NCBI GenBank assembly: GCA_021772635.1
Contig: JAJFLP010000108.1
Location: 24,782 to 88,781, forward strand
Direction: 5' to 3'
Source of the DNA: Verrucomicrobiota bacterium
Lineage (GTDB): Bacteria > Verrucomicrobiota > Lentisphaeria > JABSQK01 > JAJFLO01
DNA: 64,000 nucleotides
The position numbers were made by a program, and so were the translations under genes. Below, in pieces: positions 3,475 through 28,907 of this stretch (its first letter is position 1; each line of letters starts with the position of its first letter). Below the pieces are notes generated by a model. It was given only the letters and a program-made list of their open reading frames with translations, searched no databases and was not told the origin of the DNA.

Positions 3475-3630
3475 AATCAGCTATTAATCGATTAAAGTTG
3501 GATACTTGTAAATCGGTTCATCGACCACCAATCTACTACGCGAGTAATTATTCGTAAACTGACGGCTGAAAGTATTTCTGCCACATTGGCTGGCGGGGCT
3601 TATTGGGATTTTGACGGCGATCATACGTTA

Positions 3631-3685
3631 ATCCCACCAGTGGGTTTAATTCCCGACGCTTGGCCCGAGGCAGTTGATTTAACAC
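3631..3685. repeat. Repeat module U: CCACCAGTGGGTTTAATTCCCGAC...GGCCCGAGGCAGTTGATTTAA
   Basis: The same bipartite motif recurs at 30563-30668 and 57739-57853. The left half alone recurs at 5965-5980. All four copies sit in 5' or divergent intergenic regions. Confidence 0.6.
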
Positions 3686-3983
3686 GAATGTAATTTGATT
3701 ATTGTCTATTCGCAACGGACAACGACAACACAAAGAGCGACGACATAGTATTATTGGGTACGCTTTTATCCTGCGCCGGATGTTTATTGACGGGAAAGAC
3801 ACCTTCCTATTTCGTGTCGTATGGCGAACCCTAAGACACTCGCAAATTACTAATCCCCGACTGGGGTTCTTTCGCCGGTGCTAACAGCAGCGATCATCCT
3901 CTTTGGGTTACGTCCTTACTTACAGTGTGGAATGAGGCGCCGTAAAAGATATTTTCTCAAGCGGTCCTAATGATTACATACCG

Positions 3984-5432: not shown

Positions 5433-5439
5433 TATTAAT

Positions 5440-7658: not shown

Positions 7659-7725
7659 AGAAAACGTCGCCTGATTCGACTCAGTGAGGCCGCGGAGTAA
7701 GAATCGGAACGCGAGTAATACGCTG

Positions 7726-8349
7726 TTAATTTAGGAGATCGGCGTGTTCGTTATGTCCGTACCGCGCGCCTGGCAGATCTCGGTCGCGCGTATAAGGCGG
7801 TGTTTCAGAGGTGGGCATTTGGTAATCTGGAAAATCCTCCAGCCATTGCGCTCGCGACTCGTCGTCTGCGAAATACCTGAGGTATAACTGGATATCTTCA
7901 TCGCTACCGCTTCCGACGAGGTCAACATAGAAGGCGGAGTGTTCATCCAATGGGATAATTACAGTCTCCTCCCGTAAATGTTTATCCCATAGTCGGCTGT
8001 ATAGAGCGCGGTCATTCAGATGATTCGTGTTCTCCAGAAATACGCGGAATCCAGCTAGTGCCTCGACGAGCAGCCATAAACGAAGGCGCAGCTCTGCCTC
8101 ATTCATTGCGTCAGGCGGAGTAAGTTCGAATCCCGCGTTAACGAGTTCCTGAAAATAGTTTCCTTTCGGCATTTTCTCGAAGTCAACAATTCGTTGCCAG
8201 AATTGCTCTTCGACTTCTGGCGGACAATCTGTTGAATCCGTGAAGAATACCTTCCCGCCGGCTATCCTTTCGGCCTCGCGCTTAAGCTTGCTGATCCGTA
8301 TTTCTATATCGACGCGTTTGAGCTTCTCGTTCAGATTTTCTTCATCCAT
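7726..8349 (-). CDS. Hypothetical acidic cytoplasmic protein
   Basis: A clean 207-aa ORF fills the gap between neighbouring genes. No recognisable motif. Confidence 0.45.
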   Translation of the reverse strand: MDEENLNEKLKRVDIEIRISKLKREAERIAGGKVFFTDSTDCPPEVEEQFWQRIVDFEKMPKGNYFQELVNAGFELTPPDAMNEAELRLRLWLLVEALAGFRVFLENTNHLNDRALYSRLWDKHLREETVIIPLDEHSAFYVDLVGSGSDEDIQLYLRYFADDESRAQWLEDFPDYQMPTSETPPYTRDRDLPGARYGHNEHADLLN

Positions 8350-8459
8350 ATTGCCAGCTATCCATTTGCAGGTTGTTGCGGTACCGATTACCTACGAGTG
8401 TTCGAAATCACTTCTGTATACCGAATAAGGCGGGGGGCGAATATTAGATTACGTACAAT

Positions 8460-9935: not shown

Positions 9936-10054
9936 AATTTCTTCCGTTAGAGTAGTTTTAATATTTTCGGACTTTTTTGCGCGATTAATCTATACCGCAA
10001 GCGGTACAATTTTCCGACGACTTTGAAATGATTGCGTAAGAGACTCCGAGCGAT

Positions 10055-10085
10055 TTTTCGTCCCGCATGCGGTATGAAGACGCTT
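10055..10085. repeat. Single reverse-orientation copy of hairpin module T (CGTCTTCATaCCGCATGCGGGACGAAAAAT)
   Basis: Contains the palindrome CCGCATGCGG. It matches 46338-46365, 63895-63925 and 54681-54700, and sits in the gltB-gltD spacer. Confidence 0.6.
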
Positions 10086-10120
10086 AGGCTAAATCACTCA
10101 AGAACTGGACTGTTTAAAGT

Positions 10121-13100: not shown

Positions 13101-14716
13101 TTTGTTACCTGCGCAAACAGCTGTTTGAAGTAGTCGTAAATCAGGCGAGGTCGCTTAGATAGAATCGCCGACGGCGTGTCGTCACCCATAGACCCTGTCG
13201 GTTCTTTTCCGGCAACAGCCATCGGGCCGATAATTATTTCCAAGTCTTCTATACTGTAACCAAAGGCTTGCTGTCTGGTTAATAATGTCGACGTATCTGA
13301 TTTGGTACTGGAATCCGTGGCCGGAAGGTCGTCGAATGATTTTAGATTGTTTTTAAGCCAGGTGCGATAGGGCTGTCGGCCTGCCATTCCATCCTTTATC
13401 TCTTCATCGTCGATAATCCGTCCGGCGTCGGTATCGACCAGAAACATGCGGCCGGGTTCAAGGCGGCCCTTATACGACACATTTTCCGGCGGTATATCTA
13501 GGACACCAGTTTCAGATGCCATTACGACGAGGCCGTCTTTGGTAACCGTATACCTTGAGGGACGCAGCCCGTTTCGATCCAGTACCGCTCCAATACAGCG
13601 CCCATCAGTGAAGGGGATAGATGCCGGCCCGTCCCAAGGTTCCATCAGGCAGGAGTGATACTCGTAGAATGCCTTCTTCGCGTCAGACATAGTTTCGTGA
13701 TTCTGCCATGCTTCAGGAATACACATCATAATCGAATGCGGTAAAGACCGACCGGTATGGTAAAGCAACTCGATCGCGTTATCCAGAATTGCCGAATCAC
13801 TTCCACCTGGTGTCGCGATCGGAAATAACTTCGCGATATCGTCTCCGAATAACGGTGACTCGAATAAATACTGGCGTGCGTTCATCCAGTTGATATTCCC
13901 ACGAAGCGTATTTATTTCACCGTTATGACAAAGAAAACGGAAGGGCTGGGCTAGGTCCCACGTTGGGAATGTGTTCGTGCTGTAACGTTGATGGACGAGT
14001 GCCAAACCGCTCACTAAATCCGGATCAGCAAGGTCGATAAAATATGACTCAAACTGTGTTGCTAAGAGCATCCCTTTGTATACCAAGGTGTTGCAGGATA
14101 GACTCGAAATATAAAACGACGATTTTTCAGTCAGATCCGATTCACGAACCTCACGCTCCAGAACCTTTCTGATCATGTAGAGTTTACACTCAAATTCTGC
14201 CGCGTCCTTTAAGTTCGGACCACGGCCAACGAAAATCTGCGCAACGCACGGTTCTACGTCCCTGGCAATTTCGCCTATATCTCGATTGTCGGTTGGCACT
14301 TCGCGCCATCCCAATACAGTTTGGCCCTCGGCTTTAACAACGTCTTCAAACAACGATATACACCGTTGACGTTGTCCCTTATCCTGCGGAAGAAAGACAA
14401 TACCCGTGCCGTAGTCGTGTTCATCGCCGATATCAATACCATTTGCGTCACACATTTTCCGAAGAAATTTATGTGGTATCTGCATCAATAAACCCGCGCC
14501 GTCACCCGTCTTTTCGTCACATCCACAAGCACCGCGATGAGTGAGATTCACGAGTATCTCAAGCGCGTTTTTTACGAGCTTATGAGACTTTCGACCTTGG
14601 AGGTCGCATATGAAACCAGCGCCACATGCGTCGTGCTCAAACTGCGCGTCGTATAGGCCGGACCGAGTTGGCCTGCCATCGGGATATCGAGTGGAAAATT
14701 CATCGAAATTCTTCAT
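10121..14716 (-). CDS. gltB: Glutamate synthase large subunit
   Basis: 1531 aa. The N-terminal amidotransferase has the catalytic Cys in [11 protein letters not shown], followed by FMN and Fe-S central domains and a GXGXG C-terminal domain. Collinear with GltB. Confidence 0.95.
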
Positions 14717-15391
14717 AAGCAGAAATTATCTCTTGATTAAATATGTCAGTTAGCTGTAGTGCCGTCGGAATCCGAGCGAATGTACCCAGGACTTTATCAA
14801 GTCAATGACACTCGAAAAATAATCGACCGCTTGCAGTCTAGATCGTACAACGTATAGCAGTAACGATTGTACTGCCGAATGATGACAACAGCAAATTTGG
14901 AACGAACCGTTAAAAGCACCAAGATCACAAATTCCAGGGTGATCTATAGTTTGCATTTCAGTGGAAAGCCGAATACGAATACCGTATTTTTTTGAATTTT
15001 CAAATGAAATTACCGCTATCGATATGCTTTTGTCTATTACTCCCAACTCACGGAACATTATATGTTTCAGCGCGACGCCCAGTCCGTAATGACAGACTAT
15101 GGAGTCCATTGATTCAATTCACGGAATCCTAAGACGAAAGCACGGCGTTGCGAGGCCGAAGAACCGCAGTTTAAGAATTGAAACTGGACTGCCAGGAGGA
15201 GGTTGGTCGCCAGGAACTAAAGAAAAGAGACCGGGGCACTACCGTTGAAGGGGAAGATGGCTGGAACAAGATTAAGAGAACTTTGTTATTCGTAATCTTA
15301 ATCGTGTTCATACCCGCAATCGATTAAAACTATGATTAAGAATACGTAGCAAGGGCAACTGTTTTCGGAGGCGATGTTTTCTGAGGTTAGG

Positions 15392-15835
15392 TCAGTGTAA
15401 CAGTATCTTTTTTATCGTATTCTTCTGATTGTCCGATAGGGAGGTGTAAACCTTCCGGTACTTCGACATATTCGCACCGGTGTTAAGCTGATTAATTTCT
15501 CTCTCTACGTCCCTTGAGTCATACCCTAACGTTCGCGAACCCCGTGCTACAGAACCTACCAAATCAATCAGAGTACTGTTCTCTTCGTGGAAGTAATCCA
15601 CGTTGTCGACGTCACCATATACCTTTGAATACCACGTCCCGGCCATGATCAAGAATGCTGCCGTGACCGTGAAAAGAGACTTTCGGACGGTCGATTTGTC
15701 CGTACGGAATTTTACCGCTAACTTTCCTGTAATAGTGCGCGGCCGCTGTCGCTGTCGACGTCGCTGTCGCGTCGGTTTTCCCTCCGACTTTGACGACTTC
15801 GTGAAGAATTTCGCTTCATTTTCTTCTCTGGTCAT
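15392..15835 (-). CDS. Hypothetical small protein with an arginine-rich N-terminus (RQRRRQRQRPR) and one transmembrane segment
   Basis: A 147-aa ORF in a lower-GC 1.3-kb gap upstream of gltB. No homology recognised. It could be spurious. Confidence 0.3.
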   Translation of the reverse strand: MTREENEAKFFTKSSKSEGKPTRQRRRQRQRPRTITGKLAVKFRTDKSTVRKSLFTVTAAFLIMAGTWYSKVYGDVDNVDYFHEENSTLIDLVGSVARGSRTLGYDSRDVEREINQLNTGANMSKYRKVYTSLSDNQKNTIKKILLH

Positions 15836-16040
15836 ACGTCGGCTCCTCTAATCGTTATTGAACAAAGACTAAAATACGTTATTTCTATGGCAAAAGCAAG
15901 ATCGGCAAGGTTCCAAGAATGGAGGTTATCAGTTTTTTGAGATACCTCTTGTATGAGTTATGAGAATTCGACGAGACAGCGCTTGCGTATGATTATCTCT
16001 TTAAGTGTAACTCGGCAACCTGGCAGCGGGGAGATATTCG

Positions 16041-18851
16041 ATGGGTAGAAAATTACATTTTTTCGGTTGGGACAGACCGGTTCAAGAGTCAGCGGTCGAG
16101 TTTCTCGTTTCCGACAAAGATAGTGGGCTGATCGATTTGAGTGCGGATCTGGTTATCGTACCCACTCAGCATTCCGGGCGCCGACTGTCAGATCGATTGG
16201 CGCTATTGGCAGCAGTAAAACAAACAGCAGTTTTGCCTGGTTTGATCGTGAGTCCCCGTTACCTTCTTACGCAAGCGTGTAAGACGTCGAGGATCTCCGG
16301 GAAGACTCAGTCCCTGAGTCTCTGGATAGATGTTCTCCTATCCACCGATCTGTCGCGGTTTCCAATTCTTTTCTCATCTCCGCCCGCAAACAAAGATTTT
16401 AGTTGGGCGATGTCAATTGGTCGGCATTTACTATCAATCCAATCCGAGCTCGGGGACAACGGTTACACGATACAAGACCTGTGCACCCTTGATCACGACA
16501 TGTTCGAAGAAGAAAAACGGTGGAACGAACTTGCGGCACTCGCAGAATTATTTTTTAACAGGGTGCATGAGGCAGGGTTAGCGGAGGCTAACCAGACCCA
16601 ACGAGAAGCGATCTCCCGGCTTACGCTACCACCAGAGATAAAACGAATAGTGATGATCGCAGTACCGGATCCGACACCGCTCGCCGTGACTGCGCTCGAA
16701 CATCTTTCCACTGTACTACCCGTTGATATATGTGTTCATGCGCCTTCTTCGATGGCGGATTATTTCGATGATTGGGGGCGTCCGCGATCCGATAAGTGGC
16801 ATAATTTCGAGACCGATATCGCATCAGAGAACATCACGCTTGCAGGTAAGACGGTAGATCAGGCCGATGCCGTGGCGACAATGGTATTGGGAAAGGACGC
16901 AGTCTTAAGGCTTCAAGACACCGCAATCGGCGCTGCTGATGAACTCGTAATTCCGCAGTTGAAGACGCTATTCGCAAGAAACGAAGTGGCTACCTTCAGT
17001 CCACAAGGTGAACCGTTAAGCAATCATCCACTGTTTCTACTTATAACTTCGTTATCTGACATACTCTCGCGACCACAATTCGAGGCTTACGCGAGGCTGC
17101 TCAGGAATCCGTACATACTCGATTATTTAACGAAATCGATCGATAATTTTTCCGTGACGAAACTTATGCATGACCTGGATAGAATCCAAGGTCAGTTTAT
17201 GCCTTATCGATTTTCGGATGTGACGCGGGTACTCAAGAAGGGGCTTTACCCCGGCTCTGACTTACAAAATGCATTGACAAAGGTAGAGAAATGGATCTCC
17301 CAGTTTAGCGGTGCCGATACCTGCCAGACCGTCCGAAGTGTACTTGCAGAGATTTTCAGCGTTAGGGAGTTAAGTATCACGAACGAAAGTGATCGCCTTT
17401 TTCGTGACGTATCTGAATTCATAATTTCAACTTTGGACGAACTGGATTCCCCCGTAATAAAGTCACTCAACGTACCTGCATACGGAATTATGGACCTCCT
17501 CCTCCTGGCGATGCAAACTCAAAGTTACTATCCGGACCGGCACGGGGCGGAGCTCGACTTGCTTGGTTGGCTGGAATTGCCTTGGGAAGACGCTCCGAAC
17601 CTAATAATTACCGGGATGAACGACGGCTGCGTTCCCGCCTCGATTGTAGGAGATTTATTTCTACCCGAGAAACTCCGGCGATTTCTGGGGCTTAAGACCA
17701 ATGACCAGCGATTCGCGAGGGATGCTTACTTGCTGACTGCGATTTGTGAATCCAGAAGGCATACGGGCGACGTCAAGATAATTGTCGGGAAGACCAACGA
17801 CGCTGGAGATATTCTTAAGCCGTCGAGACTTCTATTCCTTTGTGATGACTCATCCTTGTCTGAGCGTGCATCCAGGCTATTTCGTCCGATGGAGTCTATG
17901 GGTGAGATTGCGCCACGAGAAATAGATTGGAAACTCGTTGCAGACTCGAGTATCAACGTTCCCGAGACGATTTCCGTTACTGCGCTTCGAGATTATTTAA
18001 TTTGCCCATACAGGTTTTACTTGAAACGAATTTTGCATATGAAAGAGGTTGGCAACCGCAAGCGGGAGCTGGACCCATCCGAATTCGGCAGTCTCTGTCA
18101 CTATGCCTTGGAAAGATTCGGACGCGACGAAGAGATTCGAGACAGTACCGACGAACAACTGATAGCAGACTTTCTTGCCGATCAATTGAATAAACGCGTT
18201 CGTGAAACATTCGGATCGGCACCGCCGGTCTTAGTCTCAATCCAAACCGAGTCAATCAGACAGCGTCTCGAGCATGCCGCCAGGATTCAAGCCGGTCTGC
18301 GATCTGCGGGATGGCGAATTGCCGAGGTTGAAAAGTCGATTTCGTGTCGGGAACCGTGGTCGACGAATATAATGATTACCGCGAAGTGCGATCGCATTGA
18401 CATCAACGATAATTCCGGGAATATCCGAATATACGACTATAAGACATCGGATCAAAAGCGATGCCCTGTTAAGGCCCATATGGCGACACTTTCGAATTCT
18501 GCAGAGGTGCCCGATTTTATTCGTTTCGAGTCTCGCGGTAGATCCTACCGATGGATGGACTTGCAGCTGCCGCTTTATTTTTTAATGCTATATGGCGAGT
18601 ATCGTGACAATGTTGAATGCGGTTACTTTAATCTCCCTAAAGCAGTCGGCGATACCGGTATCGCGATTTGGGATGACTTCGATCCGGCTCTCATTGAATT
18701 AGCCGCGACATGTGCCGAAGGGATTACGAGCGCAGTTAAGGACAAGCGATTCTGGCCACCGGCGGCGCACGTGGAGTATGACGAGTACAGCCGCATTTTG
18801 TTGGGCGACGCATTGGCTTTTGCCTCTTCACCGGTGCCGACAGTTAAATAA
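16041..18851 (+). CDS. addB: Helicase-nuclease complex subunit AddB (alphaproteobacterial-type, inactive-helicase/nuclease subunit)
   Basis: 936 aa. The N-terminus has a degenerate P-loop region (LVIVPTQHSGRRLSDRL). The C-terminus carries a PD-(D/E)XK nuclease motif ...IDINDNSGNIRIYDYKTSD. It sits directly upstream of an AddA-like UvrD helicase. Confidence 0.7.
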   Translation: MGRKLHFFGWDRPVQESAVEFLVSDKDSGLIDLSADLVIVPTQHSGRRLSDRLALLAAVKQTAVLPGLIVSPRYLLTQACKTSRISGKTQSLSLWIDVLLSTDLSRFPILFSSPPANKDFSWAMSIGRHLLSIQSELGDNGYTIQDLCTLDHDMFEEEKRWNELAALAELFFNRVHEAGLAEANQTQREAISRLTLPPEIKRIVMIAVPDPTPLAVTALEHLSTVLPVDICVHAPSSMADYFDDWGRPRSDKWHNFETDIASENITLAGKTVDQADAVATMVLGKDAVLRLQDTAIGAADELVIPQLKTLFARNEVATFSPQGEPLSNHPLFLLITSLSDILSRPQFEAYARLLRNPYILDYLTKSIDNFSVTKLMHDLDRIQGQFMPYRFSDVTRVLKKGLYPGSDLQNALTKVEKWISQFSGADTCQTVRSVLAEIFSVRELSITNESDRLFRDVSEFIISTLDELDSPVIKSLNVPAYGIMDLLLLAMQTQSYYPDRHGAELDLLGWLELPWEDAPNLIITGMNDGCVPASIVGDLFLPEKLRRFLGLKTNDQRFARDAYLLTAICESRRHTGDVKIIVGKTNDAGDILKPSRLLFLCDDSSLSERASRLFRPMESMGEIAPREIDWKLVADSSINVPETISVTALRDYLICPYRFYLKRILHMKEVGNRKRELDPSEFGSLCHYALERFGRDEEIRDSTDEQLIADFLADQLNKRVRETFGSAPPVLVSIQTESIRQRLEHAARIQAGLRSAGWRIAEVEKSISCREPWSTNIMITAKCDRIDINDNSGNIRIYDYKTSDQKRCPVKAHMATLSNSAEVPDFIRFESRGRSYRWMDLQLPLYFLMLYGEYRDNVECGYFNLPKAVGDTGIAIWDDFDPALIELAATCAEGITSAVKDKRFWPPAAHVEYDEYSRILLGDALAFASSPVPTVK

Positions 18852-18873
18852 ACATTGAAATCTGGAAGGATTC

Positions 18874-21800
18874 ATGGTTTCCGAAGTCTACAATCACGAA
18901 GTTATCTCTGCTTCTGCCGGATCGGGGAAAACGTTTCAGCTGACGAATCGTTATCTTAACCTGGTTCTCGCGAGGAACATCAACCCGGAAGCAATTATAG
19001 CACTCACGTTCTCGCGAAAGGCCGCCTCGGAAATTTTCGATACGATCATTGATCGGCTCGCACTGGGCACACGCTCTTCCGCTGCCGCCCGTCTGTTGGG
19101 ATGCCAGATCAGGGTCCCTGATCTAAACGAAGGTGATTGTATACGTTGTTTGAGGACACTATTGAGTTGCCTTCACAAGAATCGAATCGGTACTTACGAC
19201 AGTTTCTTTATTTGGATACTGAGAACATTCGCGTGGGAATTCGGCGTAACAGGTAACTTTAGAATAGTTGATCCGCTTATGGCGGCGGTCAAGGTTCAAG
19301 ACGTGTTAAACGGCCTGTTCCAGCGCGGCAGAAATTTGGACGATGCTCACCGTGAATTCGTTGAGATATTTAAACGGGCTACATTCGGGCGTCAGGAGAA
19401 AGCGTTATCCAACTTATTGAGTTCGTTCGTTGAAAACTACCATCATATTTATCTCGATTCGCCCAATCGCGAGAATTGGGGCAGCGTCAATACAATTTGG
19501 CCGGATGGTTGCGAATCGTTGGTGGTTGAGTTTGACATAGAAAATGAGATCGCCTCCCTGAAAGCTCAGATACTCGACGATTCCGTCAGTAAAAAGGAAC
19601 GAGAGGCTTGGGAGACGTTCCTGTTCGAGGTCGAAGCATTCTCTCCGTATACGCAGATCGCCCCCGGTTTGCGGTATCTTCTCGAAAAGCTGGTTCCGAA
19701 ACTTGACGATCTCAAGGCCGGCTCAGCGGAGTTGAAGATTAATCGTGAAACCCGCGTACTCTCGTCCAAAGCCTGCCAACACCTCTACAATCTCGTTACC
19801 CATATAGTCGGGATCTGCCTGCGAACACAGATTCAAAAGACCTGCGGGATTCGTGAAATTATTCAACGCTTCGAGACGCGATATAACATAGACGCTCGAT
19901 GCGCGGGAGAATTAACATTTTCCGATGTTCAGACCCTGCTTGATCCCGCGGATACGGGAGTCGGAAATTGCTTGCCATTATCCCAGAAACCAGGCGCAGC
20001 CGATCGGCTATACATCGACTACAGACTCGATAGCCGGTTCGAGCACTGGCTCCTTGATGAATTCCAGGACACAAGTACGCTGCAATGGCGTATCATCGAG
20101 AATCTCATCGACGAGGTCGTACAGGACACGTCGGGAGCCCGGACTTTCTTTTATGTCGGTGACCTGAAGCAAGCTATACATGGCTGGCGCGGCGGCGACT
20201 GGAAGCTTTTCGAAGATGTTGCTGATAAATATAACCACGACGGAGTCGAGCAGATTAAGCGAATTCCGCTCGCAGAATCGTATCGCTCATGCCAGCCCGT
20301 GATCGATACTGTAAATATGGTTTTCGAGCCTGAAAGTCTAGCGACTATCCGCGGCCCCGCATTAAGACGTTGGGAGCGCAACTGGCGTAGGCATACAACT
20401 ACGGTTCACGATAAGAGCGGGTATGCAACATTATTGCGTGTGCCGCGAGAATCCGGGGCGCGCTCGGCGGATCATTCCCGGGCCCGATGGCAGATCCTCG
20501 CGGAAACAATCAAGAAACTGCCATTCGAACGCAATGATCTTTCAGTTGCGGTTCTTGTGAAGACGAATAGAACGGGAAGCTCCTTGACCAGTTTCCTGCG
20601 AGTGAACGGCGTATCAGCGATATGGGAGGGGGATCTCAGAATCTCCGATAACCCGGTGGTAACGGCTTTTGTTTCTTTGATCAAAATTTCCCAGCACCCG
20701 GGGGATAGCATGGCGGAGAAGCATTTGAGGATGACTCCCTTCAGTTCAGTAATGACGCGCTGTTTTGCAGGCTACGATCAGCTGGTTGTCTCATTAAATA
20801 AAGACATTCATGCCGGTGGATTCAGCTATCTAATCGAGAAATGGATTACGCTTTTGGAAAAGGAGATAAACATAACGCGATTCGGGCGCAGAAGGATTGA
20901 TGAGTTGCTCGCGGCGGCTCGGAAGTTTGACGCATCAGGGAGCCGTAGCAGTTTGGATTTTATCGAGTACATCGAACGGTATACAACTACCGAATTGACG
21001 GATCCGACGTCCGTCCGAGTCATGACGATGCACAAATCAAAGGGGTTGGGGTTCGATGTTGTTTTACTTCCGGACCTACAGGACAAGAGCGTTCTCACGT
21101 CGTCCCGGCCGATTGACCTTGCCGTTCGTAAAAGTAAGGGCGCTGAGTCGCGAACCGAGTGGGTATTGGCAATGCCGCTTAAGACGATAAGCAACGCAGA
21201 TCCGGTACTGAAGGACTACATAGAACGACACAACGACGACTATTGTTACGAAGAACTGTGTTTGTTCTATGTCGCAATGACCCGTGCAAAAAGGGGATTA
21301 TACATGATCACAACTGCCAGTGCCCAACGATCGCAGGCGGTTTATCCTGCAACCCTACTTGAGCATGCCCTCGAGCATCGAAGTGACGCCATAGATGCAC
21401 AGAGTGATCAATCTGAGATGATCCGCGTATTCGAGACCGGGGATCCTGATTGGCACCACGATTTACCTGAGATCGAAAATGCTGAGCGTCCCGAACCTGC
21501 CCCAGCAAAGAAGATGTCACCGGAATCCCCGGGGCGACTGGCGAGAAATCTTAAGCGGATAACACCTTCCGGGGTCGAAGATATTACTATCAACGCCGGA
21601 AAGCTGTTCTCCCTGAATAGCACTTTTTCCGCGGAACTAGGGATTAGCGTTCACGAGCTATTTCAACATATCACTTGGCTGGACGATACCGATACCGTTG
21701 GGCTTGTATCTATGTGGGCGCAGGATTGTACTGTGTCTGACGCCGTCAAGTCTGCGGTTCGGGGGGAATTCGAAAACGCTATCCGCAGCCCCGCATTCCG

Positions 21801-22128
21801 GAAACTCCTCGCAAAACCCGAAAGGGACACGGATCTCTGGCGAGAGCAACGGTTTGAAATCGTACTAAATAACGAGTACGTATCAGGTTGCTTCGATCGC
21901 GTTTCGTTCGCTCGGGGGAGTGGGCCAACCGGTGTTGAACAAGCTGAAATCATCGACTATAAGACCGACAATATTAATCCGGATACTGATCTTGCAGCCG
22001 CGAAGAAGAAATATCGGCCGCAACTGGAGTTGTATCGAAAGGTAATTGCGAAAATAACGGACTTACCCGCAAAGAAGATTTCCTGCAAGCTGGCTTTTAC
22101 GAAAACAGGCACGGTCGTAGAAATTTAG
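18874..22128 (+). CDS. addA: ATP-dependent helicase/nuclease subunit AddA (UvrD/Rep superfamily 1 helicase plus a C-terminal RecB-like nuclease)
   Basis: Walker A ISASAGSGKTFQLTNRY at the N-terminus, UvrD helicase motifs, and the C-terminal nuclease motif EIIDYKTD. 1084 aa. Confidence 0.8.
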   Translation: MVSEVYNHEVISASAGSGKTFQLTNRYLNLVLARNINPEAIIALTFSRKAASEIFDTIIDRLALGTRSSAAARLLGCQIRVPDLNEGDCIRCLRTLLSCLHKNRIGTYDSFFIWILRTFAWEFGVTGNFRIVDPLMAAVKVQDVLNGLFQRGRNLDDAHREFVEIFKRATFGRQEKALSNLLSSFVENYHHIYLDSPNRENWGSVNTIWPDGCESLVVEFDIENEIASLKAQILDDSVSKKEREAWETFLFEVEAFSPYTQIAPGLRYLLEKLVPKLDDLKAGSAELKINRETRVLSSKACQHLYNLVTHIVGICLRTQIQKTCGIREIIQRFETRYNIDARCAGELTFSDVQTLLDPADTGVGNCLPLSQKPGAADRLYIDYRLDSRFEHWLLDEFQDTSTLQWRIIENLIDEVVQDTSGARTFFYVGDLKQAIHGWRGGDWKLFEDVADKYNHDGVEQIKRIPLAESYRSCQPVIDTVNMVFEPESLATIRGPALRRWERNWRRHTTTVHDKSGYATLLRVPRESGARSADHSRARWQILAETIKKLPFERNDLSVAVLVKTNRTGSSLTSFLRVNGVSAIWEGDLRISDNPVVTAFVSLIKISQHPGDSMAEKHLRMTPFSSVMTRCFAGYDQLVVSLNKDIHAGGFSYLIEKWITLLEKEINITRFGRRRIDELLAAARKFDASGSRSSLDFIEYIERYTTTELTDPTSVRVMTMHKSKGLGFDVVLLPDLQDKSVLTSSRPIDLAVRKSKGAESRTEWVLAMPLKTISNADPVLKDYIERHNDDYCYEELCLFYVAMTRAKRGLYMITTASAQRSQAVYPATLLEHALEHRSDAIDAQSDQSEMIRVFETGDPDWHHDLPEIENAERPEPAPAKKMSPESPGRLARNLKRITPSGVEDITINAGKLFSLNSTFSAELGISVHELFQHITWLDDTDTVGLVSMWAQDCTVSDAVKSAVRGEFENAIRSPAFRKLLAKPERDTDLWREQRFEIVLNNEYVSGCFDRVSFARGSGPTGVEQAEIIDYKTDNINPDTDLAAAKKKYRPQLELYRKVIAKITDLPAKKISCKLAFTKTGTVVEI

Positions 22129-22405
22129 CAATTTTTCGGTTTTCGAATTTTGACTTGTCATTTTATTGTGACCCGCGGGTCGATCAGCTGCGACTTTATA
22201 CTGTCGGAATTTGCTCAAAAGTTTACGTATGGAAAAGCTGTCGATCGCGGCGTTAGCACTGTAGTGTTCAGATACGAAAGTCAAAGTTTTCGGGGAGGAA
22301 TATTAATCAGCAGCGTATTCGTACTCACTCTCATATTGCTGCTAGCTTTGGCAATGCGTAAATCACGTAGATATAGTTGTTATCACGTTTAATTAGGTTT
22401 CGAAT

Positions 22406-23710
22406 ATGAAAATTCTGATTACTGCGGATATTCACCTCGGCAAACGTCCTTCCAGAATTCCCATTGACGTCGCTGCCGATTTTTCGAGCGCACAAATGTG
22501 GAGGCGCCTCGTCGATTTCGCGATTGAAACGGAGGTTGACGCGGTGATTCTCGCTGGCGATATCGTGGACGAGGCGAATCGGTTTTACGAGGCGATCGGG
22601 CCGCTGGAATCGGGAGTGAATCGACTGGTAGATCGACAGATTATGGTGTATGCGGTTTCCGGGAATCACGACTATGACGTCCTGCCGCGACTCACAGATT
22701 CTATTGGTGCCGATAAATTTCGTCTACTCGGGAGGGGCGGTAGTTGGCAAAGAGAGGTCCTGTTGAGAAACGACCGACCTGTCCTGCAGCTATTCGGTTG
22801 GTCCTTCCCGGGGCAACACGTTCGAAAAAGTCCGTTATCTACTTTCCCAACTGATCTTGTCGACAACTCGATACCGGCTTTGGGTATTTTGCACGCTGAT
22901 TTGGATAATCCCGAGAGTCAATATTGTCCGGTTCGTCGTGACGAGTTCGCGAAGTGTGGAGTTCCTCTATGGATTCTTGGACATATACACAAGCCGAGTG
23001 AATTCGATGCGGGCGCACATCCCATCGTAATGTATCCCGGCTCACCACAGGGTATGGATCCAGGACCGGGAGAGGTTGAAGTTCATGGTCCATGGATTTT
23101 GGAATATGAGAAGGGGGCGCCTCAGCTACGGCACCAGAATTTTGCGCCTGTTGCTTATGTTAATCTAACCATCGACATCACCGATATTGCCGACTCGGTG
23201 ACTCTCCAAACAAAGATTACTGATGCGCTTACGAATTCCGCCGAAGAGTACGCGGCGAACAACTCCCATTTAAAGGTACTATCCTATCGCCTTGAGGTTG
23301 CGGGTCGGACGTCGATGCGGTATGCGGAGGTCGAGAGTCAGTTGGATTTGCTTCAACAGACAGGGATGATGCGGAACGGAATCGACGTGTTCGTAAATAA
23401 ATACGTAATTCATGTTCAACCGCGAATCAATTTAGCGGAGTTGGTCAGTGGCAAGAATCATCTCGCGGAATTAAGTCAATTGCTACTTGCCCTCGACGGG
23501 TCACAATCCACGCCGGACGACCACCACGAATTAGTAAAGTCGTTACAGCTTCAGTTATCGAGCGCGCGTAATAGTGGGCCATTCCTGCAGCTTTCGGTCG
23601 CGAACCCGACTCACGAATCAGACGAGGAAATCGCCCGGCAACTGATCTTAGAGCAGGCGTGGCGTTTGGTAGAAGAATTGACAGGTCAAAAGGAAACCTA
23701 TGGAGAATAA
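22406..23710 (+). CDS. Mre11/SbcD-family metallophosphoesterase nuclease (YhaO/SbcF-like)
   Basis: Calcineurin-like motifs in order: ADIHLG, AGDIVD, SGNHDY, LHAD, LGHIHK. The 3' end overlaps the next gene by 11 bp. Confidence 0.8.
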   Translation: MKILITADIHLGKRPSRIPIDVAADFSSAQMWRRLVDFAIETEVDAVILAGDIVDEANRFYEAIGPLESGVNRLVDRQIMVYAVSGNHDYDVLPRLTDSIGADKFRLLGRGGSWQREVLLRNDRPVLQLFGWSFPGQHVRKSPLSTFPTDLVDNSIPALGILHADLDNPESQYCPVRRDEFAKCGVPLWILGHIHKPSEFDAGAHPIVMYPGSPQGMDPGPGEVEVHGPWILEYEKGAPQLRHQNFAPVAYVNLTIDITDIADSVTLQTKITDALTNSAEEYAANNSHLKVLSYRLEVAGRTSMRYAEVESQLDLLQQTGMMRNGIDVFVNKYVIHVQPRINLAELVSGKNHLAELSQLLLALDGSQSTPDDHHELVKSLQLQLSSARNSGPFLQLSVANPTHESDEEIARQLILEQAWRLVEELTGQKETYGE

Positions 23711-26700
23711 ATCTCTAGCGATTCGCGAAATTGAGATCCGCCGATTTCTGGGATTTCAGCGGCAGGAGGACGAATTCAGAATCGGTAAGGACTCGATATC
23801 CTCCGGTATCAATATTCTATTCGGTCCAAACGGATCTGGCAAAACCACGACAGCATTGGCTCTTCAGACTCTCATGTGGCCTCAGGTTAACGGGGGCCCA
23901 CCGCCAACATTAAATGGGAATTGGAGTCTTAACGATGACGAGTGGGATGTTAGTATCGACGCGGGGTTCACACGTTTTCGCTGCAACGGATCGGAAGCTT
24001 CGCCTCCGGCACTTGCACCCGCGGATTGGAAGGATCGCTACCGGTTGTCGCTGCACGAGCTGTTACATACTGATGATCAGCATCTCGCCGCGCAGATCCA
24101 GAACGAAATAGATGGTGGCTATGACCTCCGGGCAGCGAGTGAGGCGTTAGGCTTCACCAAAGCGATCCCGAGCCTAAACGTACGTCAATTCCGCGAACTA
24201 AAGGATGCCAATCGAAAAGTGGAAGAACTTACACGTACACAGCGTGCGCTTGCTAGCGAAGAAAGTGAACTGAGCAAGCTCGAAAGCAAACGAACTCAAG
24301 CTTCTAAGTCTCAGAATCACTACGAATCCCTAAAAATAGCGGTCGAGTATTGTGACGCACGGGAAAGACTCGATAGTGACACGGGGAAACTGGAGGTTTT
24401 CGATGCGTCCATTGGCAATCTGACCGGTGAAGAACAAGACCATCTCACCGAGTTGAAAAATGATATTCAGGCGCGAGAAATCGCCAGAGAGAAAAAACAA
24501 TTGGAGCTGGCCGATGCGGAGCGACGACAGACCGATACGAAACTCCCCACTGACACCGGAATACCGGACGGGCTCGTTGCAACTTTAGAATCGTATTCGC
24601 GAAAATTCCGGCAGCTCGAACTCGAACGGGAGGCGCGGGAGAAAGAGGTCGGAAAGCAACGGGCACTGACGGACGGGTTGCGTCGGAAATTGGGCGAGTC
24701 GTTGACCGACGCGCAGCTTGCGGACCTGAAGTTGGATGATCTGACTGAATTGGGCGAGTGGTTTAGGGCAGTAACCGCGTATCATGCCGACGACCAGGCC
24801 TTCGAAACTCTCAGCAATTTGTTGAGAACGTCCGATACCGTCAGTGACGGAGACTCGGTCGTTGAAATCTCCAAGGGTAAAGACTTACTCAACGAATGGC
24901 TGCGATCTTTGGATTCCGCGGGCAGCCGCGACCACGCGTTCAATATCACCGCGGTATTGGCGACGACCTTGATGACAATCGGAATTGTTCTGCTTGCGAT
25001 ACTTGTTCATCCCGCCTTCTTTCCCGCACTCATTCTATCAATTATTTTCTTTCTTTTCGTATTCCGTAATACAAAAAATCATCAAATTCGCTCGCGTGAT
25101 GCGATTATTGTCGATTACCTGAAACTGGAACTGAGAGCTCCGGAAACATGGGAGCGGGACCAGGTCAGTAAGCGGATCGAAGAATTCGATAAAAACTTGG
25201 CAGCCCATTCGGTCCAACAGGAAAAAGCGGATCTGTTACGGACAGTAAAAGCCACAACTGCCGAAGAGCTGGAGAAGAAACAAAAGAAAATCGATGAGAT
25301 TAGAAAATGTATAACGGAACGACTCCCGATAGACCTTAAACCTAGTGACTCCGGTTACTATTTGCTGATTGAAAATATCCGGCAGTGGCAATCTACGCAT
25401 ATTGGATTAGTTGCGGAAGAAGCGGACTTAGAGAATTTGAGCAAAAGATTGGCCATCACCCTAAACGACTTTAACGAACACCAACAAGAGTATACCGGGC
25501 AGGTCGCGAAGAATAGCCATGATGCTGACGGGATTGTAACCGAGATTTCCAAGCGCGTCACCGAGTTTAACGAGGCCCGGTCGGCGATTGATCATTCGAG
25601 TATAGAAATAAAGCGGCTATCGGCCGATATCGCTGATTATAAGAAAAGGCAACGGGCAATATTTCGAAAACTTAATGAAGACGTCGATGTTGAGGACGAC
25701 GAACAACTGGAAAATTGTGAACGCAAGTTAGTTGATTTATTGGGTCAACGAGAATCGTTTGCCGCAGTGAGGCAGGAAGTCGAAAGCAGTAAAATTAGAT
25801 TGCGCGAATTAGATCAGAAGATCCGGAAATATTCAGACGTTGATCCCGATCTCCTTGAGTTATCCAGGGAGGTTCTCATAGAAAAACGAGATCAGGCAAA
25901 AATTGAAGCTGAAGGTTTAGAATCGGTTATCGAGGAAATCACAAAGTTAACGACGAGGATTAGCGAAGCGAAGAAAAAGCATGACGTCGAAACGGCGCTC
26001 GCCGAAAAGACTGACGCGGAGTTCGAGTTGCATCAATTGTGGACCCGAACTCAATCGGCAATTGCCGGAAACGTCTTAGCGGAATTCTTAAATCGTCGTT
26101 CGCAGAAGAATGCGTCAGGTGTCTTGGCTCGCGCTCGGCAGACGTTCGCCGAGATCACGCGCCACCGGTTCGAATTGGTCGTAACTGACAGCAGTAATCC
26201 CGAGTTTCGAGCCCGCGATACGGCCAGCAGTGAACTGCGGTCGCTAAATGAATTGTCGAGTGGAACCCGGATCCAACTGTTGTTGGCAGTCCGTATAGCG
26301 TTTATCGAAGAGCAGGAGGGCAATGGCCCGCAATTGCCACTGATACTGGATGAGGTTCTTGCCAACAGTGATGACGCTAGAACCGAAGCGATCATTAACG
26401 CGGTGGTCACGATTGCGTCGAAAGGGCGACAGGTGTTTTACTTCACTGCTCAGTCAGATGAAGTTGGGAAGTGGATGGGGATACTCAAGAAACAGAAGGT
26501 AGTCAGTTATCAGGCGCCGATTATTCTTCCACCGTCCGCGCCGGCACGAGAGTTTCTGAAGTCGTCTGTTGCGACCGTCGAGTCAATAAACATCCCCATA
26601 CCGGACAAGATGACGCATTGCGAGTACGGCGAAGTTCTCAATGTTCCGCCGCTAAACCCCTGGCGGTCTTTCAGAGAAGCGCATCTCTGGCATATCGTTA

Positions 26701-27254
26701 ATAACGATGAAGTGTTATACCGACTACTTGTGCTCGGGTACACAAACTGGGGGCAGTTGGAATACCTCGTTCATGATACGGATGCAACGGCGATCAGTCG
26801 ATTGGGGATCAGCGAGGATCCCGCTTTCTATGACACGTGTCTTGCTTATGCCGAGATTCTAAAGGAAGGATTGAATCTATGGCGCATTGGCCGAGGCAAG
26901 CCTGTCGACCGTCAGACCCTACTCGACTCAGGCGCAGTAAGCGAGAAATTTGTTAACCGGATTTCTAATCAGGCGAAAGAAGTAGACGGATTCGCGAAGA
27001 AGATTATTCGGCGCCTGAAGGATAAGGCGGTGAAGGGGTTCTTGTCGAAGAAAATCGAAGAACTTGAAGGTTATTTGATTGATCAAGGATACCTGGATCA
27101 AAGAGAACCTTTAACTGCGGATGAATTTAAGATTAAACTCGACGGCATCGCGTCCGAATACGTTGGATCCGGGATGTTGTCATATCCTCAATTAGAAAAA
27201 ATACGGAATAGGCTGCTTTCCGATTTAGCATCGTATGCCGAAGCCCAAAATTGA
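23700..27254 (+). CDS. Rad50/SbcC-family ABC-type ATPase with an internal transmembrane hairpin (YhaN/SbcE-like) and a roughly 300-aa C-terminal extension
   Basis: N-terminal Walker A FGPNGSGKTT, long coiled-coil regions, an ABC signature LSSGTRIQ, and Walker B/D-loop LPLILDEVLANSDD. No CxxC zinc hook is present. Instead two hydrophobic helices (ITAVLATTLMTIGIVLLAILVHPAFFPALILSIIFFLFVF) sit mid-protein. Confidence 0.75.
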   Translation: MENKSLAIREIEIRRFLGFQRQEDEFRIGKDSISSGINILFGPNGSGKTTTALALQTLMWPQVNGGPPPTLNGNWSLNDDEWDVSIDAGFTRFRCNGSEASPPALAPADWKDRYRLSLHELLHTDDQHLAAQIQNEIDGGYDLRAASEALGFTKAIPSLNVRQFRELKDANRKVEELTRTQRALASEESELSKLESKRTQASKSQNHYESLKIAVEYCDARERLDSDTGKLEVFDASIGNLTGEEQDHLTELKNDIQAREIAREKKQLELADAERRQTDTKLPTDTGIPDGLVATLESYSRKFRQLELEREAREKEVGKQRALTDGLRRKLGESLTDAQLADLKLDDLTELGEWFRAVTAYHADDQAFETLSNLLRTSDTVSDGDSVVEISKGKDLLNEWLRSLDSAGSRDHAFNITAVLATTLMTIGIVLLAILVHPAFFPALILSIIFFLFVFRNTKNHQIRSRDAIIVDYLKLELRAPETWERDQVSKRIEEFDKNLAAHSVQQEKADLLRTVKATTAEELEKKQKKIDEIRKCITERLPIDLKPSDSGYYLLIENIRQWQSTHIGLVAEEADLENLSKRLAITLNDFNEHQQEYTGQVAKNSHDADGIVTEISKRVTEFNEARSAIDHSSIEIKRLSADIADYKKRQRAIFRKLNEDVDVEDDEQLENCERKLVDLLGQRESFAAVRQEVESSKIRLRELDQKIRKYSDVDPDLLELSREVLIEKRDQAKIEAEGLESVIEEITKLTTRISEAKKKHDVETALAEKTDAEFELHQLWTRTQSAIAGNVLAEFLNRRSQKNASGVLARARQTFAEITRHRFELVVTDSSNPEFRARDTASSELRSLNELSSGTRIQLLLAVRIAFIEEQEGNGPQLPLILDEVLANSDDARTEAIINAVVTIASKGRQVFYFTAQSDEVGKWMGILKKQKVVSYQAPIILPPSAPAREFLKSSVATVESINIPIPDKMTHCEYGEVLNVPPLNPWRSFREAHLWHIVNNDEVLYRLLVLGYTNWGQLEYLVHDTDATAISRLGISEDPAFYDTCLAYAEILKEGLNLWRIGRGKPVDRQTLLDSGAVSEKFVNRISNQAKEVDGFAKKIIRRLKDKAVKGFLSKKIEELEGYLIDQGYLDQREPLTADEFKIKLDGIASEYVGSGMLSYPQLEKIRNRLLSDLASYAEAQN

Positions 27255-27315
27255 AGTTCAGAATACGGCGGCTCGTGGTAATAGTATTTCGTCCTCAAAC
27301 TCTCGAATCCATCCC

Positions 27316-28482
27316 ATGACTGACAACGACCTCGCACTACGATACTTGCTTGAACTACTCCCTATAATTGGCGTAAGTGGGGGCGAAGTGAAGATTGCTG
27401 ATGCGGTGGTCGCTCGGCTGACTGCTGCCGGTTGTCGCCATGACTGGATCTCGCGCGACGACGTGGGCCAACAATTCCCGGATCGATTGGGGATCGGCAA
27501 TGTTATCGTCAAACTCCCGGGAACCTTGGACAGTCGGCGGCAACTTTTCGTCGCTCATCTTGACACGGTTCCGCTCTGCCTGGGATGCGAACCGGTCCGC
27601 GACGGAAATCGCATTGTCGCGCGGGGAAAAACAGCAGTCGGTGCTGATAATCGGACTGGTGTCGCGTGCCTGATCTCGGTCATTAAGACGATCCTTACCG
27701 ACAGGGTGCCGCATCCGCCGTTAACATTTCTATTCACCGTCGCGGAAGAGATTGGATTATTGGGCGCCCGCCACGTGGATTTGGATATGCTGGGTAACCC
27801 GGAGATCGGGGTTAATATCGACTCCGGTGATCCGGAAAAGCTGATCATCGGTGCAGTCGGCGCGGATCGGTGGGAGATTGAGGTTTCAGGTATTTCTGCT
27901 CATGCGGGCGTGCATCCCGAAGATGGCGTGTCCGCGTCGTTGATCGCGAGTATTGCAATAACGGATGTCCACGAACAAGGATACTTCGGGAAGATTACGA
28001 AGAACGGCCACACCGGGACTTCGAACGTTGGAGTAATTCGAGGGGGTGACGCCCTGAATCAGGTCACGGATAGCGTCATTGTCAAGGGCGAATCACGTAG
28101 TCACGACATTAAATTCATCGACGAAATTACCGAGGTATATCGAAACGCATTTGAAAAAGCCGCGACCGGTGTCGCGAATTCGCAGGGGAAAAGCGGTTGG
28201 ATTGACCTCAAAGTATCTCGGGATTATCAACCGTTTGCGCTGGACATGAATTCCGCGGCTATCAAGTACGCAACGGGCATTGCTGCCGACGCCGGGCTGA
28301 CAGCTCAGTGCATGACCGTGAACGGCGGCTTGGACGCGAGTGCGCTGAATGCGCGAGGTATTCCGACGATCACAATTGGCGCCGGTCAGCATAATGCGCA
28401 TACGATCGATGAATATGTCGATATAGACGAGTTTCTCACAGGTTGCCGATTTGCGCTTGCACTGGCGACCGGACAGGTATAG
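27316..28482 (+). CDS. M20-family metallopeptidase (peptidase T/tripeptidase-like)
   Basis: HLDTV...GADN metal-binding region, TVAEEIG and GAVGADRWE motifs typical of M20/M42. The ORF opens at 27235, but the M20-like N-terminus begins at the ATG at 27316. Confidence 0.7.
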   Translation: MTDNDLALRYLLELLPIIGVSGGEVKIADAVVARLTAAGCRHDWISRDDVGQQFPDRLGIGNVIVKLPGTLDSRRQLFVAHLDTVPLCLGCEPVRDGNRIVARGKTAVGADNRTGVACLISVIKTILTDRVPHPPLTFLFTVAEEIGLLGARHVDLDMLGNPEIGVNIDSGDPEKLIIGAVGADRWEIEVSGISAHAGVHPEDGVSASLIASIAITDVHEQGYFGKITKNGHTGTSNVGVIRGGDALNQVTDSVIVKGESRSHDIKFIDEITEVYRNAFEKAATGVANSQGKSGWIDLKVSRDYQPFALDMNSAAIKYATGIAADAGLTAQCMTVNGGLDASALNARGIPTITIGAGQHNAHTIDEYVDIDEFLTGCRFALALATGQV

Positions 28483-28651
28483 AAGAACGTACAAAAAGAT
28501 TTACCACGAAGGCGCGGAGAGAATAAGAAGGAGATTTTTTAGTTTGACGATACGCCAAATTAAAAAATGACTTTGACTACGAAATCGGAGCGAGATATGA
28601 CTCATAGTGTACCGCTTGCCGTATATATCTTGGTGCCCTCACTAATAAGTA

Positions 28652-28697
28652 ATCATTGACGTTGACGCAAAGCTCTGTTTGCGCCAACGTCAATGAT
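28652..28697. terminator. 20-bp near-perfect inverted repeat (ATCATTGACGTTGACGCAAA-6 nt-TTTGCGCCAACGTCAATGAT) between convergent genes. It is a possible bidirectional terminator or operator.
   Basis: Seen directly. One mismatch in 20 bp. Located between the peptidase stop (28482) and the bioC stop (28908). Confidence 0.45.
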
Positions 28698-28907
28698 CTC
28701 TATTCTTCATCTCCGCGCCTCCGTGGTATATTATTTGTTTATCTTTCTTTCGTCTGGTGTAGCTTCCCCGTTCGCCCCGAGGTCGTTCTGCAGTCTGGCG
28801 CGAATGAAAACAGGTGATATTACTTCTTTTTCGACTTCGTTTCTTCCAGGATCCAGAAGCGAGCATCCAGGATCCAGGATCGAGAAGTGAGCATCTGTTC
28901 CCGTTCG

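Follow-up and report, generated by a model that had tools for sequence, protein, structure and literature searches.

Rad50/SbcC-type complexes are thought to need a zinc hook. The closest described relatives of the genes reported here, SbcE (YhaN) and SbcF (YhaO), come from Bacillus subtilis, where SbcE interacts with SbcF/YhaO and acts in mending double-strand breaks (DSBs) in DNA and in transformation, accumulating at the poles of competent cells and forming nucleoid foci in 10% of growing cells (PMC2811018). The central domain of SbcE has a hydrophobic first half, contains a conserved proline but no CxxC, and was fully insoluble on expression (Krishnamurthy et al., PMC2811018). In B. subtilis the gene order addB-addA-sbcD-sbcC is also known, as a putative operon (PMC1533848). 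A locus that repeats this order, but in which another Rad50-like pair takes the place of sbcDC, was characterized in a 64,000 nucleotide stretch of the genome of a Verrucomicrobiota bacterium (lineage Lentisphaeria; contig JAJFLP010000108.1, forward strand positions 24,782 to 88,781), hereafter termed the window. The locus had been singled out in an earlier reading of the letters and open reading frames (ORFs) alone, referred to below as the sequence-only reading. It comprises addB- and addA-like genes followed by a two-gene cassette encoding an Mre11/SbcD-like nuclease and a Rad50-like ATPase, and on balance this cassette probably specifies a membrane-anchored SbcCD-like DNA-end nuclease with a repair-type role in accessory end processing alongside AddAB.

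The 434 residue nuclease was identified as a calcineurin-like phosphoesterase (Pfam Metallophos, 3.8e-13) in which the five Mre11/SbcD metallophosphoesterase motifs are legible as DIH, GDIVD, GNHD, LHADL and GHIH, and its best solved relatives in the PDB were Mre11 structures (1ii7, E 5e-6). It departs from SbcD in that the corresponding NCBIfam model (sbcd, TIGR00619) matched residues 1-89 only, at 52.8 bits against a cut-off of 77.65, and the C-terminal half of the protein is specific to the cassette family. By these matches the nuclease is a divergent member of the Mre11/SbcD family. For the ATPase, the Walker A, signature and Walker B motifs and the long coiled coils described in the sequence-only reading were recovered by motif read-out and in a full-length AlphaFold model (mean predicted local distance difference test score, pLDDT, 79.7) with arms at residues 161-405 and 486-819. 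In an alignment of 15 homologues, used throughout to assess motif invariance, the invariant residues of the signature and Walker B motifs were L852, S853, T856, P880, L881, D884 and E885. The ATPase family profile matched Pyrococcus furiosus Rad50 in two stretches (E 2e-13), and Foldseek searches with the full-length model returned the SMC/Rad50 superfamily generally (Smc5/6, condensin, Rad50, MukB and JetC, with LmuB also listed), whilst the head alone was most similar to Rad50 and SbcC. Pfam SMC_N scored 25.5 bits against a cut-off of 40 and the NCBIfam SbcC model did not match the window ATPase. One position in the head is altered, the H-loop His being replaced by Gln within GRQVFYFTAQ as judged from alignment with YhaN-like proteins; this position is Q in 107 of 124 family members, N in four, R in four and D in three, in contrast to the His of the YhaN-like comparators. 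Judged by its motifs, the nucleotide-binding site is intact apart from this change. The two proteins can therefore be placed, on sequence, as a pair of the Mre11/Rad50 kind, sharing with SbcCD and Mre11-Rad50 two overlapping genes, the five phosphoesterase motifs and an ABC head split by antiparallel coiled coils, but differing from them in the absence of a zinc hook and the presence of a hydrophobic hairpin, an extra C-terminal domain and the H-loop Gln.

The pairing of these two genes is constant. Wherever a locus extends far enough upstream, the gene immediately preceding that of the ATPase is Mre11-like, in approximately 35 loci in all (six by exact look-up, together with about 30 of the 51 metagenomic loci). 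The overlap between the two genes is usually 4 bp, and in the window it is 11 bp (23700-23710), as the sequence-only reading had it. Since nuclease and ATPase are kept together while linkage to AddAB is not, the conserved unit is the two-gene cassette.

At the position where a zinc hook would be expected, the ATPase carries a hydrophobic helical hairpin. No CxxC was found anywhere in the window ATPase, which contains six cysteines in total, and the 44 residues from 414 to 457 include no D, E, K or R and reach a Kyte-Doolittle maximum of 2.63 over 19 residues. AlphaFold modelled this segment as helices of 23 and 21 residues separated by an H-P turn, with basic residues on both flanks, and the earlier claim that two hydrophobic helices stand in place of a CxxC hook is thus upheld by both hydropathy and model. 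Of 115 full-length family representatives, 113 had a central hydrophobic segment, which kept a constant relative position and spanned 45 residues in the median, whilst a central CxxC was seen in one. The sequence of the hairpin is unconserved in the 15-homologue alignment except for an xP turn, and the retention of hydrophobicity and length without conservation of sequence is, as a sequence pattern, the signature of lipid-facing helices rather than of a specific protein interface. As both ends of the hairpin run into coiled coils that return to one head, both must be cytoplasmic. Sequence and model together strongly suggest insertion in the membrane, and the hairpin is predicted to be a membrane anchor replacing the zinc hook. 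It might instead form a buried hinge or dimerisation domain joining the two arms in the cytoplasm, a substitute for the hook that would make the complex a soluble SbcCD variant. The discrete nucleoid foci formed by SbcE-YFP in growing cells, the description of the SbcE central domain only as hydrophobic and insoluble and not as membrane-spanning, and the low AlphaFold confidence in the hairpin all fit such a hinge. The run of 44 uncharged residues, the two helices of 21-23 residues with basic flanks, the persistence of hydrophobicity and length in 113 of 115 representatives with no conserved sequence beyond the xP turn, and the location of SbcE at the cell poles of competent cells argue against it, and a buried hinge is considered improbable.

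Comparison with the predicted membrane-anchored ATPase's nearest relatives places it close to SbcE but not within YhaN proper. When the family alignment was compared with YhaN-type proteins by hhalign, a match with 99.96% probability (E 4e-39) was obtained over 886 columns, confined to query residues 5-910; coiled-coil regions inflate such scores, and the comparators were five metagenomic proteins either named YhaN or carrying AAA_27, not B. subtilis YhaN itself. Two of these five comparators have a similar hydrophobic, proline-containing centre. The Pfam AAA_27 model (PF13514) scored 16 bits with the window ATPase against a gathering cut-off of 22, and matched 7 of 15 family members at E<1e-3, with AAA_23 equally good in 12 of the 15. 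With SbcE/SbcF the cassette shares an SMC-like ABC ATPase with arms of approximately 300 residues, a hydrophobic centre with a proline and no CxxC, and an Mre11-like gene directly upstream, and it is the hhalign match together with the shared hydrophobic proline centre that supports placement near SbcE/SbcF rather than near canonical SbcCD. The C-terminal 270 or so residues of the window ATPase had no counterpart in the comparators in the hhalign comparison: YhaN-type proteins stop right after the ATPase C-lobe, whereas the cassette family adds a conserved C-terminal domain of approximately 220 residues. Defined by this domain and by the H-loop Gln, the cassette ATPase is, on sequence grounds, a large family separate from YhaN proper. 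The assignment to the YhaN/SbcE-YhaO/SbcF type in the sequence-only reading therefore stands as far as the closest described relative is concerned, given the hhalign E value, the hydrophobic centre and the upstream nuclease, but fails for YhaN proper, given the extra domain and the Gln.

A conserved PxP...EY..L.VP motif marks the start of the C-terminal domain, and the all-helical part behind it contains the motifs WRIGRGxPVDR, SGAVS and GF...L..YL..GYLD. Modelled alone it gave a confident all-helical fold (pLDDT 86.6, with residues 31-255 of the construct mostly above 90). No Pfam model covered the domain in 15 members at E<=0.001, and a Pfam search with the domain alone from 13 members at E<=5 returned nothing relevant. 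A profile search of the PDB gave no sequence match and a Foldseek search of the PDB with the model gave nothing (best E 0.6). That the protein continues past the ATPase lobe into a domain resisting assignment, as first noticed from the letters, thus holds, the extension lying in the same frame. A profile of residues 930-1184 retrieved 1,969 clusters (50% identity) at E<=1e-3, 1,366 of them at E<=1e-30, and in the best 150 of the 1,969 the domain was always C-terminal, in proteins of approximately 1,150-1,200 residues or in N-truncated fragments of such proteins. Upwards of 100 full-length representatives, as well as archaeal orthologues, show the same collinear architecture of ATPase and domain. 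The possibility that the region is a frameshifted separate gene, which had been named in advance as a refutation, was rejected, as the ORF is continuous and the same fusion occurs in bacterial and archaeal homologues. Apparent stand-alone copies of the domain were likewise discounted, these being N-truncated fragments or frameshift-split genes in long-read assemblies; in two long-read metagenome loci (L061 and L062) the ATPase gene is spread over two or three ORFs, most likely through frameshift errors that give rise to false stand-alone domains. The domain is naturally absent from one 919 residue family member (P0014; L008, 8001-10760, on a 3.55-Mb contig with a Bacteroidota-like context), which ends directly after the ATPase C-lobe and retains both the nuclease partner and the hydrophobic hairpin. 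Within the domain, LLDSGAVSEKFVNRI...AVKGFLSKKIEELEGYL weakly resembles two helix-hairpin-helix (HhH) motifs, and an hhalign comparison with an approximate sequence of the C-terminal domain of Escherichia coli RpoA gave a probability of 0.4%, which is not significant, the aligned stretch being the second HhH. DNA binding by the domain is hypothetical only.

The distribution of the cassette bears on whether it serves repair or defence. Named bacterial members came from metagenome-assembled genomes of Gemmatimonadota (including Longimicrobiales) and Proteobacteria. A tblastn search of 72,556 plasmids with the C-lobe and C-terminal domain gave hits in 10 records, every one of them from Halobacteria (Natrinema, Haloarcula, Halosimplex, Haloferax and others), at 36-40% identity over 87-98% of the query, and no bacterial plasmid among the 72,556. 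Searches of 50,697 phage records and of IMG/VR viral contigs yielded no copy. The family thus occupies Gram-negative lineages and haloarchaeal plasmids and not the Firmicutes, unlike SbcE/SbcF, and the suggestion that an arrangement of this sort is unusual outside Firmicutes is contradicted by the Gemmatimonadota, Proteobacteria and haloarchaeal members. Five of the ten plasmid regions were inspected (L063-L068; NZ_CP100447.1, NZ_CP010531.1, NZ_CP118159.1, NZ_CP085333.1 and NZ_CP106967.1). Each contains a 'DNA repair exonuclease' of approximately 430 residues followed, with an overlap of 4-8 bp, by an 'SMC family ATPase', 'AAA family ATPase' or 'hypothetical protein' of approximately 1,160-1,190 residues. 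The Natrinema pair is collinear with the window pair at full length (ATPase 30% identical over 1,175 residues, E 2e-149; nuclease 34%, E 1e-77), the ATPase match including the VHP turn, FTAQ and the C-terminal domain. Neighbouring plasmid genes encode an NrS-1-type polymerase helix-bundle (PrimPol-like) protein, an Avs-like STAND ATPase, DUF3883, a primase and a Piwi-domain protein, and defence or mobile genes abound in all five inspected contexts. Natrinema and Haloarcula plasmids share an identical multi-gene block, and the occurrence of the same block on plasmids of different genera implies that the cassette moves horizontally.

Bacterial neighbourhoods were more varied. The 131 ORFs flanking metagenomic cassettes represented 103 Pfam families, none of them present in more than three loci, and were mostly metabolic or housekeeping. 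Some bacterial cassettes adjoin NACHT, SIR2/NB-ARC, restriction-modification S subunit, HigB or PIN/Phd genes, and PADLOC applied to the neighbour ORFs identified LmuB/LmuC at a single locus and mads components in at most two ORFs. With the window ATPase, PADLOC gave local matches only (LmuB at residues 8-50 and mad3 at residues 680-916), and none of the partner genes LmuA/LmuC, JetA/B/D or AriB was present among the flanking ORFs of the window. In the locus of the closest homologue (L002, 5098-8402) two co-oriented Band_7/SPFH genes for flotillin-like membrane scaffold proteins lie directly upstream of the cassette, an arrangement that recurs in L003 and L004; in view of the membrane anchor predicted for the ATPase it is suggestive.

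The cassette could be a defence or conflict module that acts on foreign DNA in ways comparable to Lamassu, Wadjet and SbcCD itself. A membrane-resident SMC-like sensor with an Mre11-like effector would then recognise foreign DNA that is linear or has free ends and cleave it on its way through the membrane, whether by phage injection, conjugation or transformation. Adjacency to addBA would then be incidental or reflect cooperation in degrading the cut DNA. Like Lamassu LmuB, Wadjet JetC and PARIS AriA, the cassette combines a coiled-coil ABC ATPase with a nuclease, has a patchy, mobile distribution and is in some copies adjacent to defence genes; it differs from these SMC-based systems in that its effector is an Mre11-type phosphoesterase and its PADLOC matches are local and low-scoring. 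No described defence SMC protein is known to have a membrane hairpin at its apex. A defence role draws on the autonomy of the cassette, its patchy distribution and variable neighbourhoods, its presence on ten haloarchaeal plasmids with the same block shared across genera, implying horizontal transfer, its position beside defence genes in some bacterial loci and beside LmuB/LmuC in one, the weak PADLOC matches to LmuB, mad3 and AriA, a membrane anchor that would place the complex where foreign DNA enters, and the absence of the cassette from the three nearest AddA relatives. Set against this, the PADLOC models match only local ATPase and coiled-coil stretches, partner genes of known SMC-based defence systems are absent from the window, the 131 neighbour ORFs are for the most part commonplace metabolic or housekeeping genes, no copies were found on bacterial plasmids, phages or viral contigs, two loci tie the cassette to dedicated DSB-repair genes, and SbcEF as the only studied relative has repair and competence phenotypes (PMC2811018). 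That the cassette is mobile and has archaeal plasmid and defence-island neighbours speaks for defence against DNA entering at the membrane, or for its processing; the precedent of SbcE/SbcF and the two loci with links to AddAB and Ku/LigD speak for repair. A defence function, raised in the sequence-only reading as one that could not be dismissed, is made somewhat more credible by the archaeal plasmid contexts and is a real but lesser possibility, with accessory repair still rated higher. A bolder and rather doubtful conjecture is that the cassette encodes a membrane-embedded Rad50-Mre11 machine guarding the inner face of the membrane, with the C-terminal domain aiding the capture of DNA ends that enter or leave, and that it is a mobile anti-invader or DNA-uptake system shared by Bacteria and Haloarchaea rather than housekeeping repair.

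The genes upstream of the cassette encode a divergent AddB-AddA pair. The AddB-like protein has a C-terminal PD-(D/E)XK nuclease with a DYK motif (Pfam PDDEXK_1, residues 643-867, 1.9e-24) and an N-terminus without a Walker A motif. It matched no PDB sequence and scored 71 bits with NCBIfam addB_alphas, far under the 486-bit cut-off; no cysteine pattern of the CxxCxxxxxC type was noticed on reading by eye, which was not a systematic examination. The AddA-like protein is a UvrD-type SF1 helicase with Walker A GSGKT (Pfam UvrD-helicase, 2.1e-34; UvrD_C, 1.9e-19) and a C-terminal PD-(D/E)XK nuclease, PDDEXK_1 being recorded for an identical database protein. Its best solved relative was B. subtilis AddA (3u44, E 3e-17) and it scored 238 bits with NCBIfam addA_alphas against a cut-off of 861. 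Full-length AddA homologues numbered in the thousands, the nearest only 43-44% identical, and named homologues at 37-40% identity came from Lentisphaeria, Victivallales, Kiritimatiellae and Dehalococcoidia, which points to a sparsely sampled lineage outside the Firmicutes, probably allied to the PVC group. In each of the three closest AddA relatives a PDDEXK addB likewise immediately precedes addA. The pair resembles AddAB of the alphaproteobacterial and Bacillus types in having addB 5' of addA, a C-terminal PD-(D/E)XK domain in both proteins and a UvrD-type AddA, and differs in that both proteins fall far under the NCBIfam equivalog cut-offs. Domain content marks it as an AddB-AddA helicase-nuclease, the DSB-resecting enzyme, which has diverged but remains intact.

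Linkage of this pair to the cassette is rare. AddA and AddB adjoin the cassette in only two of approximately 40 loci, the window and L005, and no cassette lies downstream of addB-addA in the three closest AddA relatives; in two other loci a weakly similar UvrD-like gene (approximately 980 residues) lies on the opposite strand. In L005 the order is Ku, LigD, ..., nuclease, ATPase, a SEC-C protein, AddB, AddA, within 19 kb of a 434-kb metagenomic contig, and the region (1-19498) looks like a DSB-repair gene neighbourhood; relative to the window, cassette and addBA are reversed with an extra gene between them. The position of the cassette beside addBA is, from this gene-order comparison, a lineage-specific juxtaposition. 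The physical linkage to AddAB, pointed out in the sequence-only reading, is by this comparison not a trait of the system, and the order itself was already known (PMC1533848).

The four genes could nevertheless be one ancestral operon encoding a dedicated AddAB-SbcEF break-processing machine. They are co-oriented in the order of B. subtilis addB-addA-sbcD-sbcC, L005 also has cassette and addBA close together, and a scan of the spacer that separates addA from the nuclease gene showed nothing terminator-like. This spacer of 277 bp, with its promoter-like site, divides the genes into two units, linkage was seen in two of approximately 40 loci with the order in L005 reversed and an extra gene between, and the three nearest AddA relatives keep addB-addA without a downstream cassette. 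A single ancestral operon is thus quite unlikely. By comparison the gap between addB and addA is 22 bp. The promoter-like site, TTGGCA-18-TATAGT, is at 22348-22377, 29 bp 5' of the nuclease ATG, and the cassette would probably be transcribed from its own promoter in the spacer; counts of promoter-like and terminator-like sites in the scanned region were at chance level, and the scan found no terminator-like site in the spacer.

The sequence-only reading had given the spacer as 276 bp, one too few, and had drawn attention to two dyads within it. The first was found as the 12-bp palindrome GACCCGCGGGTC at 22170-22181. The second is also present, one base out of the register first given, as AGCAGC (22309-22314) pairing with GCTGCT (22338-22343). 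The spacer RNA folded no better than shuffled sequence (z = -0.78), so the dyads carry no weight, and a repeat finder working from a 6-base exact seed detected no inverted repeat of 8 or more bases in the spacer. With site counts also at chance, the dyads were rejected as a regulatory element. A 74-codon ORF with a GTG start (22168-22392, forward strand), which is called as a gene in the public record and may be spurious, spans much of the spacer; it encodes a transmembrane-like stretch ILISSVFVLTLILLLALAM followed by RKSRR, and the AGCAGC/GCTGCT dyad lies inside it.

A working model for the cassette as an accessory repair nuclease can be set out as follows. The nuclease and ATPase would form an SbcCD-like heterotetramer, in which ATP-driven engagement of the heads would clamp DNA ends or hairpins and both license and position the nuclease. 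The hydrophobic hairpins would insert in the cytoplasmic membrane, each with its two ends on the inner side, and may pair within it in place of dimerisation through a hook. The complex would hang from the membrane on arms estimated at 30-40 nm, which is how far its heads would reach into the cytoplasm. The C-terminal domain would add a DNA- or partner-binding surface to each head, and the H-loop Gln may slow or modify ATP hydrolysis, in its rate or its control. By analogy with SbcE/SbcF in B. subtilis, the complex would probably act in accessory DNA-end processing beside AddAB. Several observations weigh against this account. The haloarchaeal plasmid cassettes lie among primase, Avs-like STAND, DUF3883 and Piwi genes, a pattern more typical of conflict systems, and some bacterial cassettes lie beside NACHT, SIR2/NB-ARC, restriction-modification or toxin-antitoxin genes. 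Linkage to AddAB is weak evidence for a shared pathway since it holds in two of approximately 40 loci and in none of the three closest AddA relatives. With Gln in the H-loop, the ATPase cycle could be unlike the Rad50 cycle. The hairpin was modelled by AlphaFold at low confidence (pLDDT about 45-55), and B. subtilis SbcE-YFP also forms nucleoid foci (PMC2811018), so that even the relative SbcE may not be strictly membrane-bound.

The positions of all features are collected in Table 1. The coordinates and strand of the four co-oriented ORFs agreed exactly with those first reported from the sequence. The window is chromosomal and bacterial, containing bacterial signal recognition particle RNA and tRNAs, and base composition is flat over all four genes. 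An ORF for a PepT-like M20 peptidase (27235-28482, forward strand) lies 3' of the ATPase gene; its 20-bp overlap with that gene may be unreal, as the family profile does not begin before residue 36 and translation more plausibly starts at Met28 (27316). The peptidase was rejected as a fifth member of the unit, being missing from all other cassette loci. The M20 peptidase gene and a methyltransferase gene converge on an inverted repeat with a 20-bp stem (28651-28698), which probably serves as a bidirectional terminator. A 1531 residue ORF (10121-14716) is encoded on the opposite strand, upstream of the addB region.

Table 1. Coordinates of the addB-addA genes, the nuclease-ATPase cassette and the features of the ATPase within the 64,000 nucleotide window
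Feature	Position in window	Strand	Residues or size	Details
addB-like gene	16041-18851	+	936 aa	
addA-like gene	18874-22128	+	1084 aa	
addA-nuclease spacer	22129-22405	+	277 bp	read from sequence
Mre11/SbcD-like nuclease gene	22406-23710	+	434 aa	
Rad50-like ATPase gene	23700-27254	+	1184 aa	
Walker A GPNGSGKT	23823-23846	+	42-49	G42, P43, N44, G47 and K48 invariant
Head N-lobe			1-150	AlphaFold
First coiled coil			161-405	AlphaFold
Hydrophobic helical hairpin	24936-25073	+	413-458	hydropathy and AlphaFold
Hydrophobic hairpin helices			413-435, 438-458	AlphaFold
Second coiled coil			486-819	AlphaFold
Head C-lobe			824-932	AlphaFold
Signature LSSGT and Walker B LPLILDE	26253-26354	+	852-856, 879-885	
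H-loop His replaced by Gln (GRQVFYFTAQ)	26451-26453	+	918	alignment with YhaN-like proteins
Linker			933-965	AlphaFold, low confidence
Family-specific C-terminal domain	26595-27251	+	966-1184	approximately 220 aa
Helical C-terminal domain			973-1183	AlphaFold

The cassette is one member of a large unannotated family, a variant on the Rad50/Mre11 (SbcE/SbcF-like) theme, and not an oddity of one genome. The kind of system it represents is already known, and adjacency to AddAB is the least general part of the finding; its real and testable features are the apex with the predicted membrane hairpin, the head domain peculiar to the family and the altered H-loop position. With approximately 2,000 clusters at 50% identity in which a lipid-type helical hairpin takes the place of the hook, the H-loop is altered and the head carries a domain of its own, the family would constitute a natural experiment on the apex and the ATPase cycle of these machines. 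A membrane hairpin also offers a testable explanation for the insolubility of the SbcE central domain and for the polar accumulation of the SbcE protein in competent B. subtilis. Members are labelled 'SMC family ATPase', 'EcfA2' or hypothetical in their sources, with no Pfam model over the C-terminal domain, and definition of the family would improve the annotation of many environmental genomes and haloarchaeal plasmids. If a defence role were true, the cassette would represent a new membrane-based SMC-like immune system.

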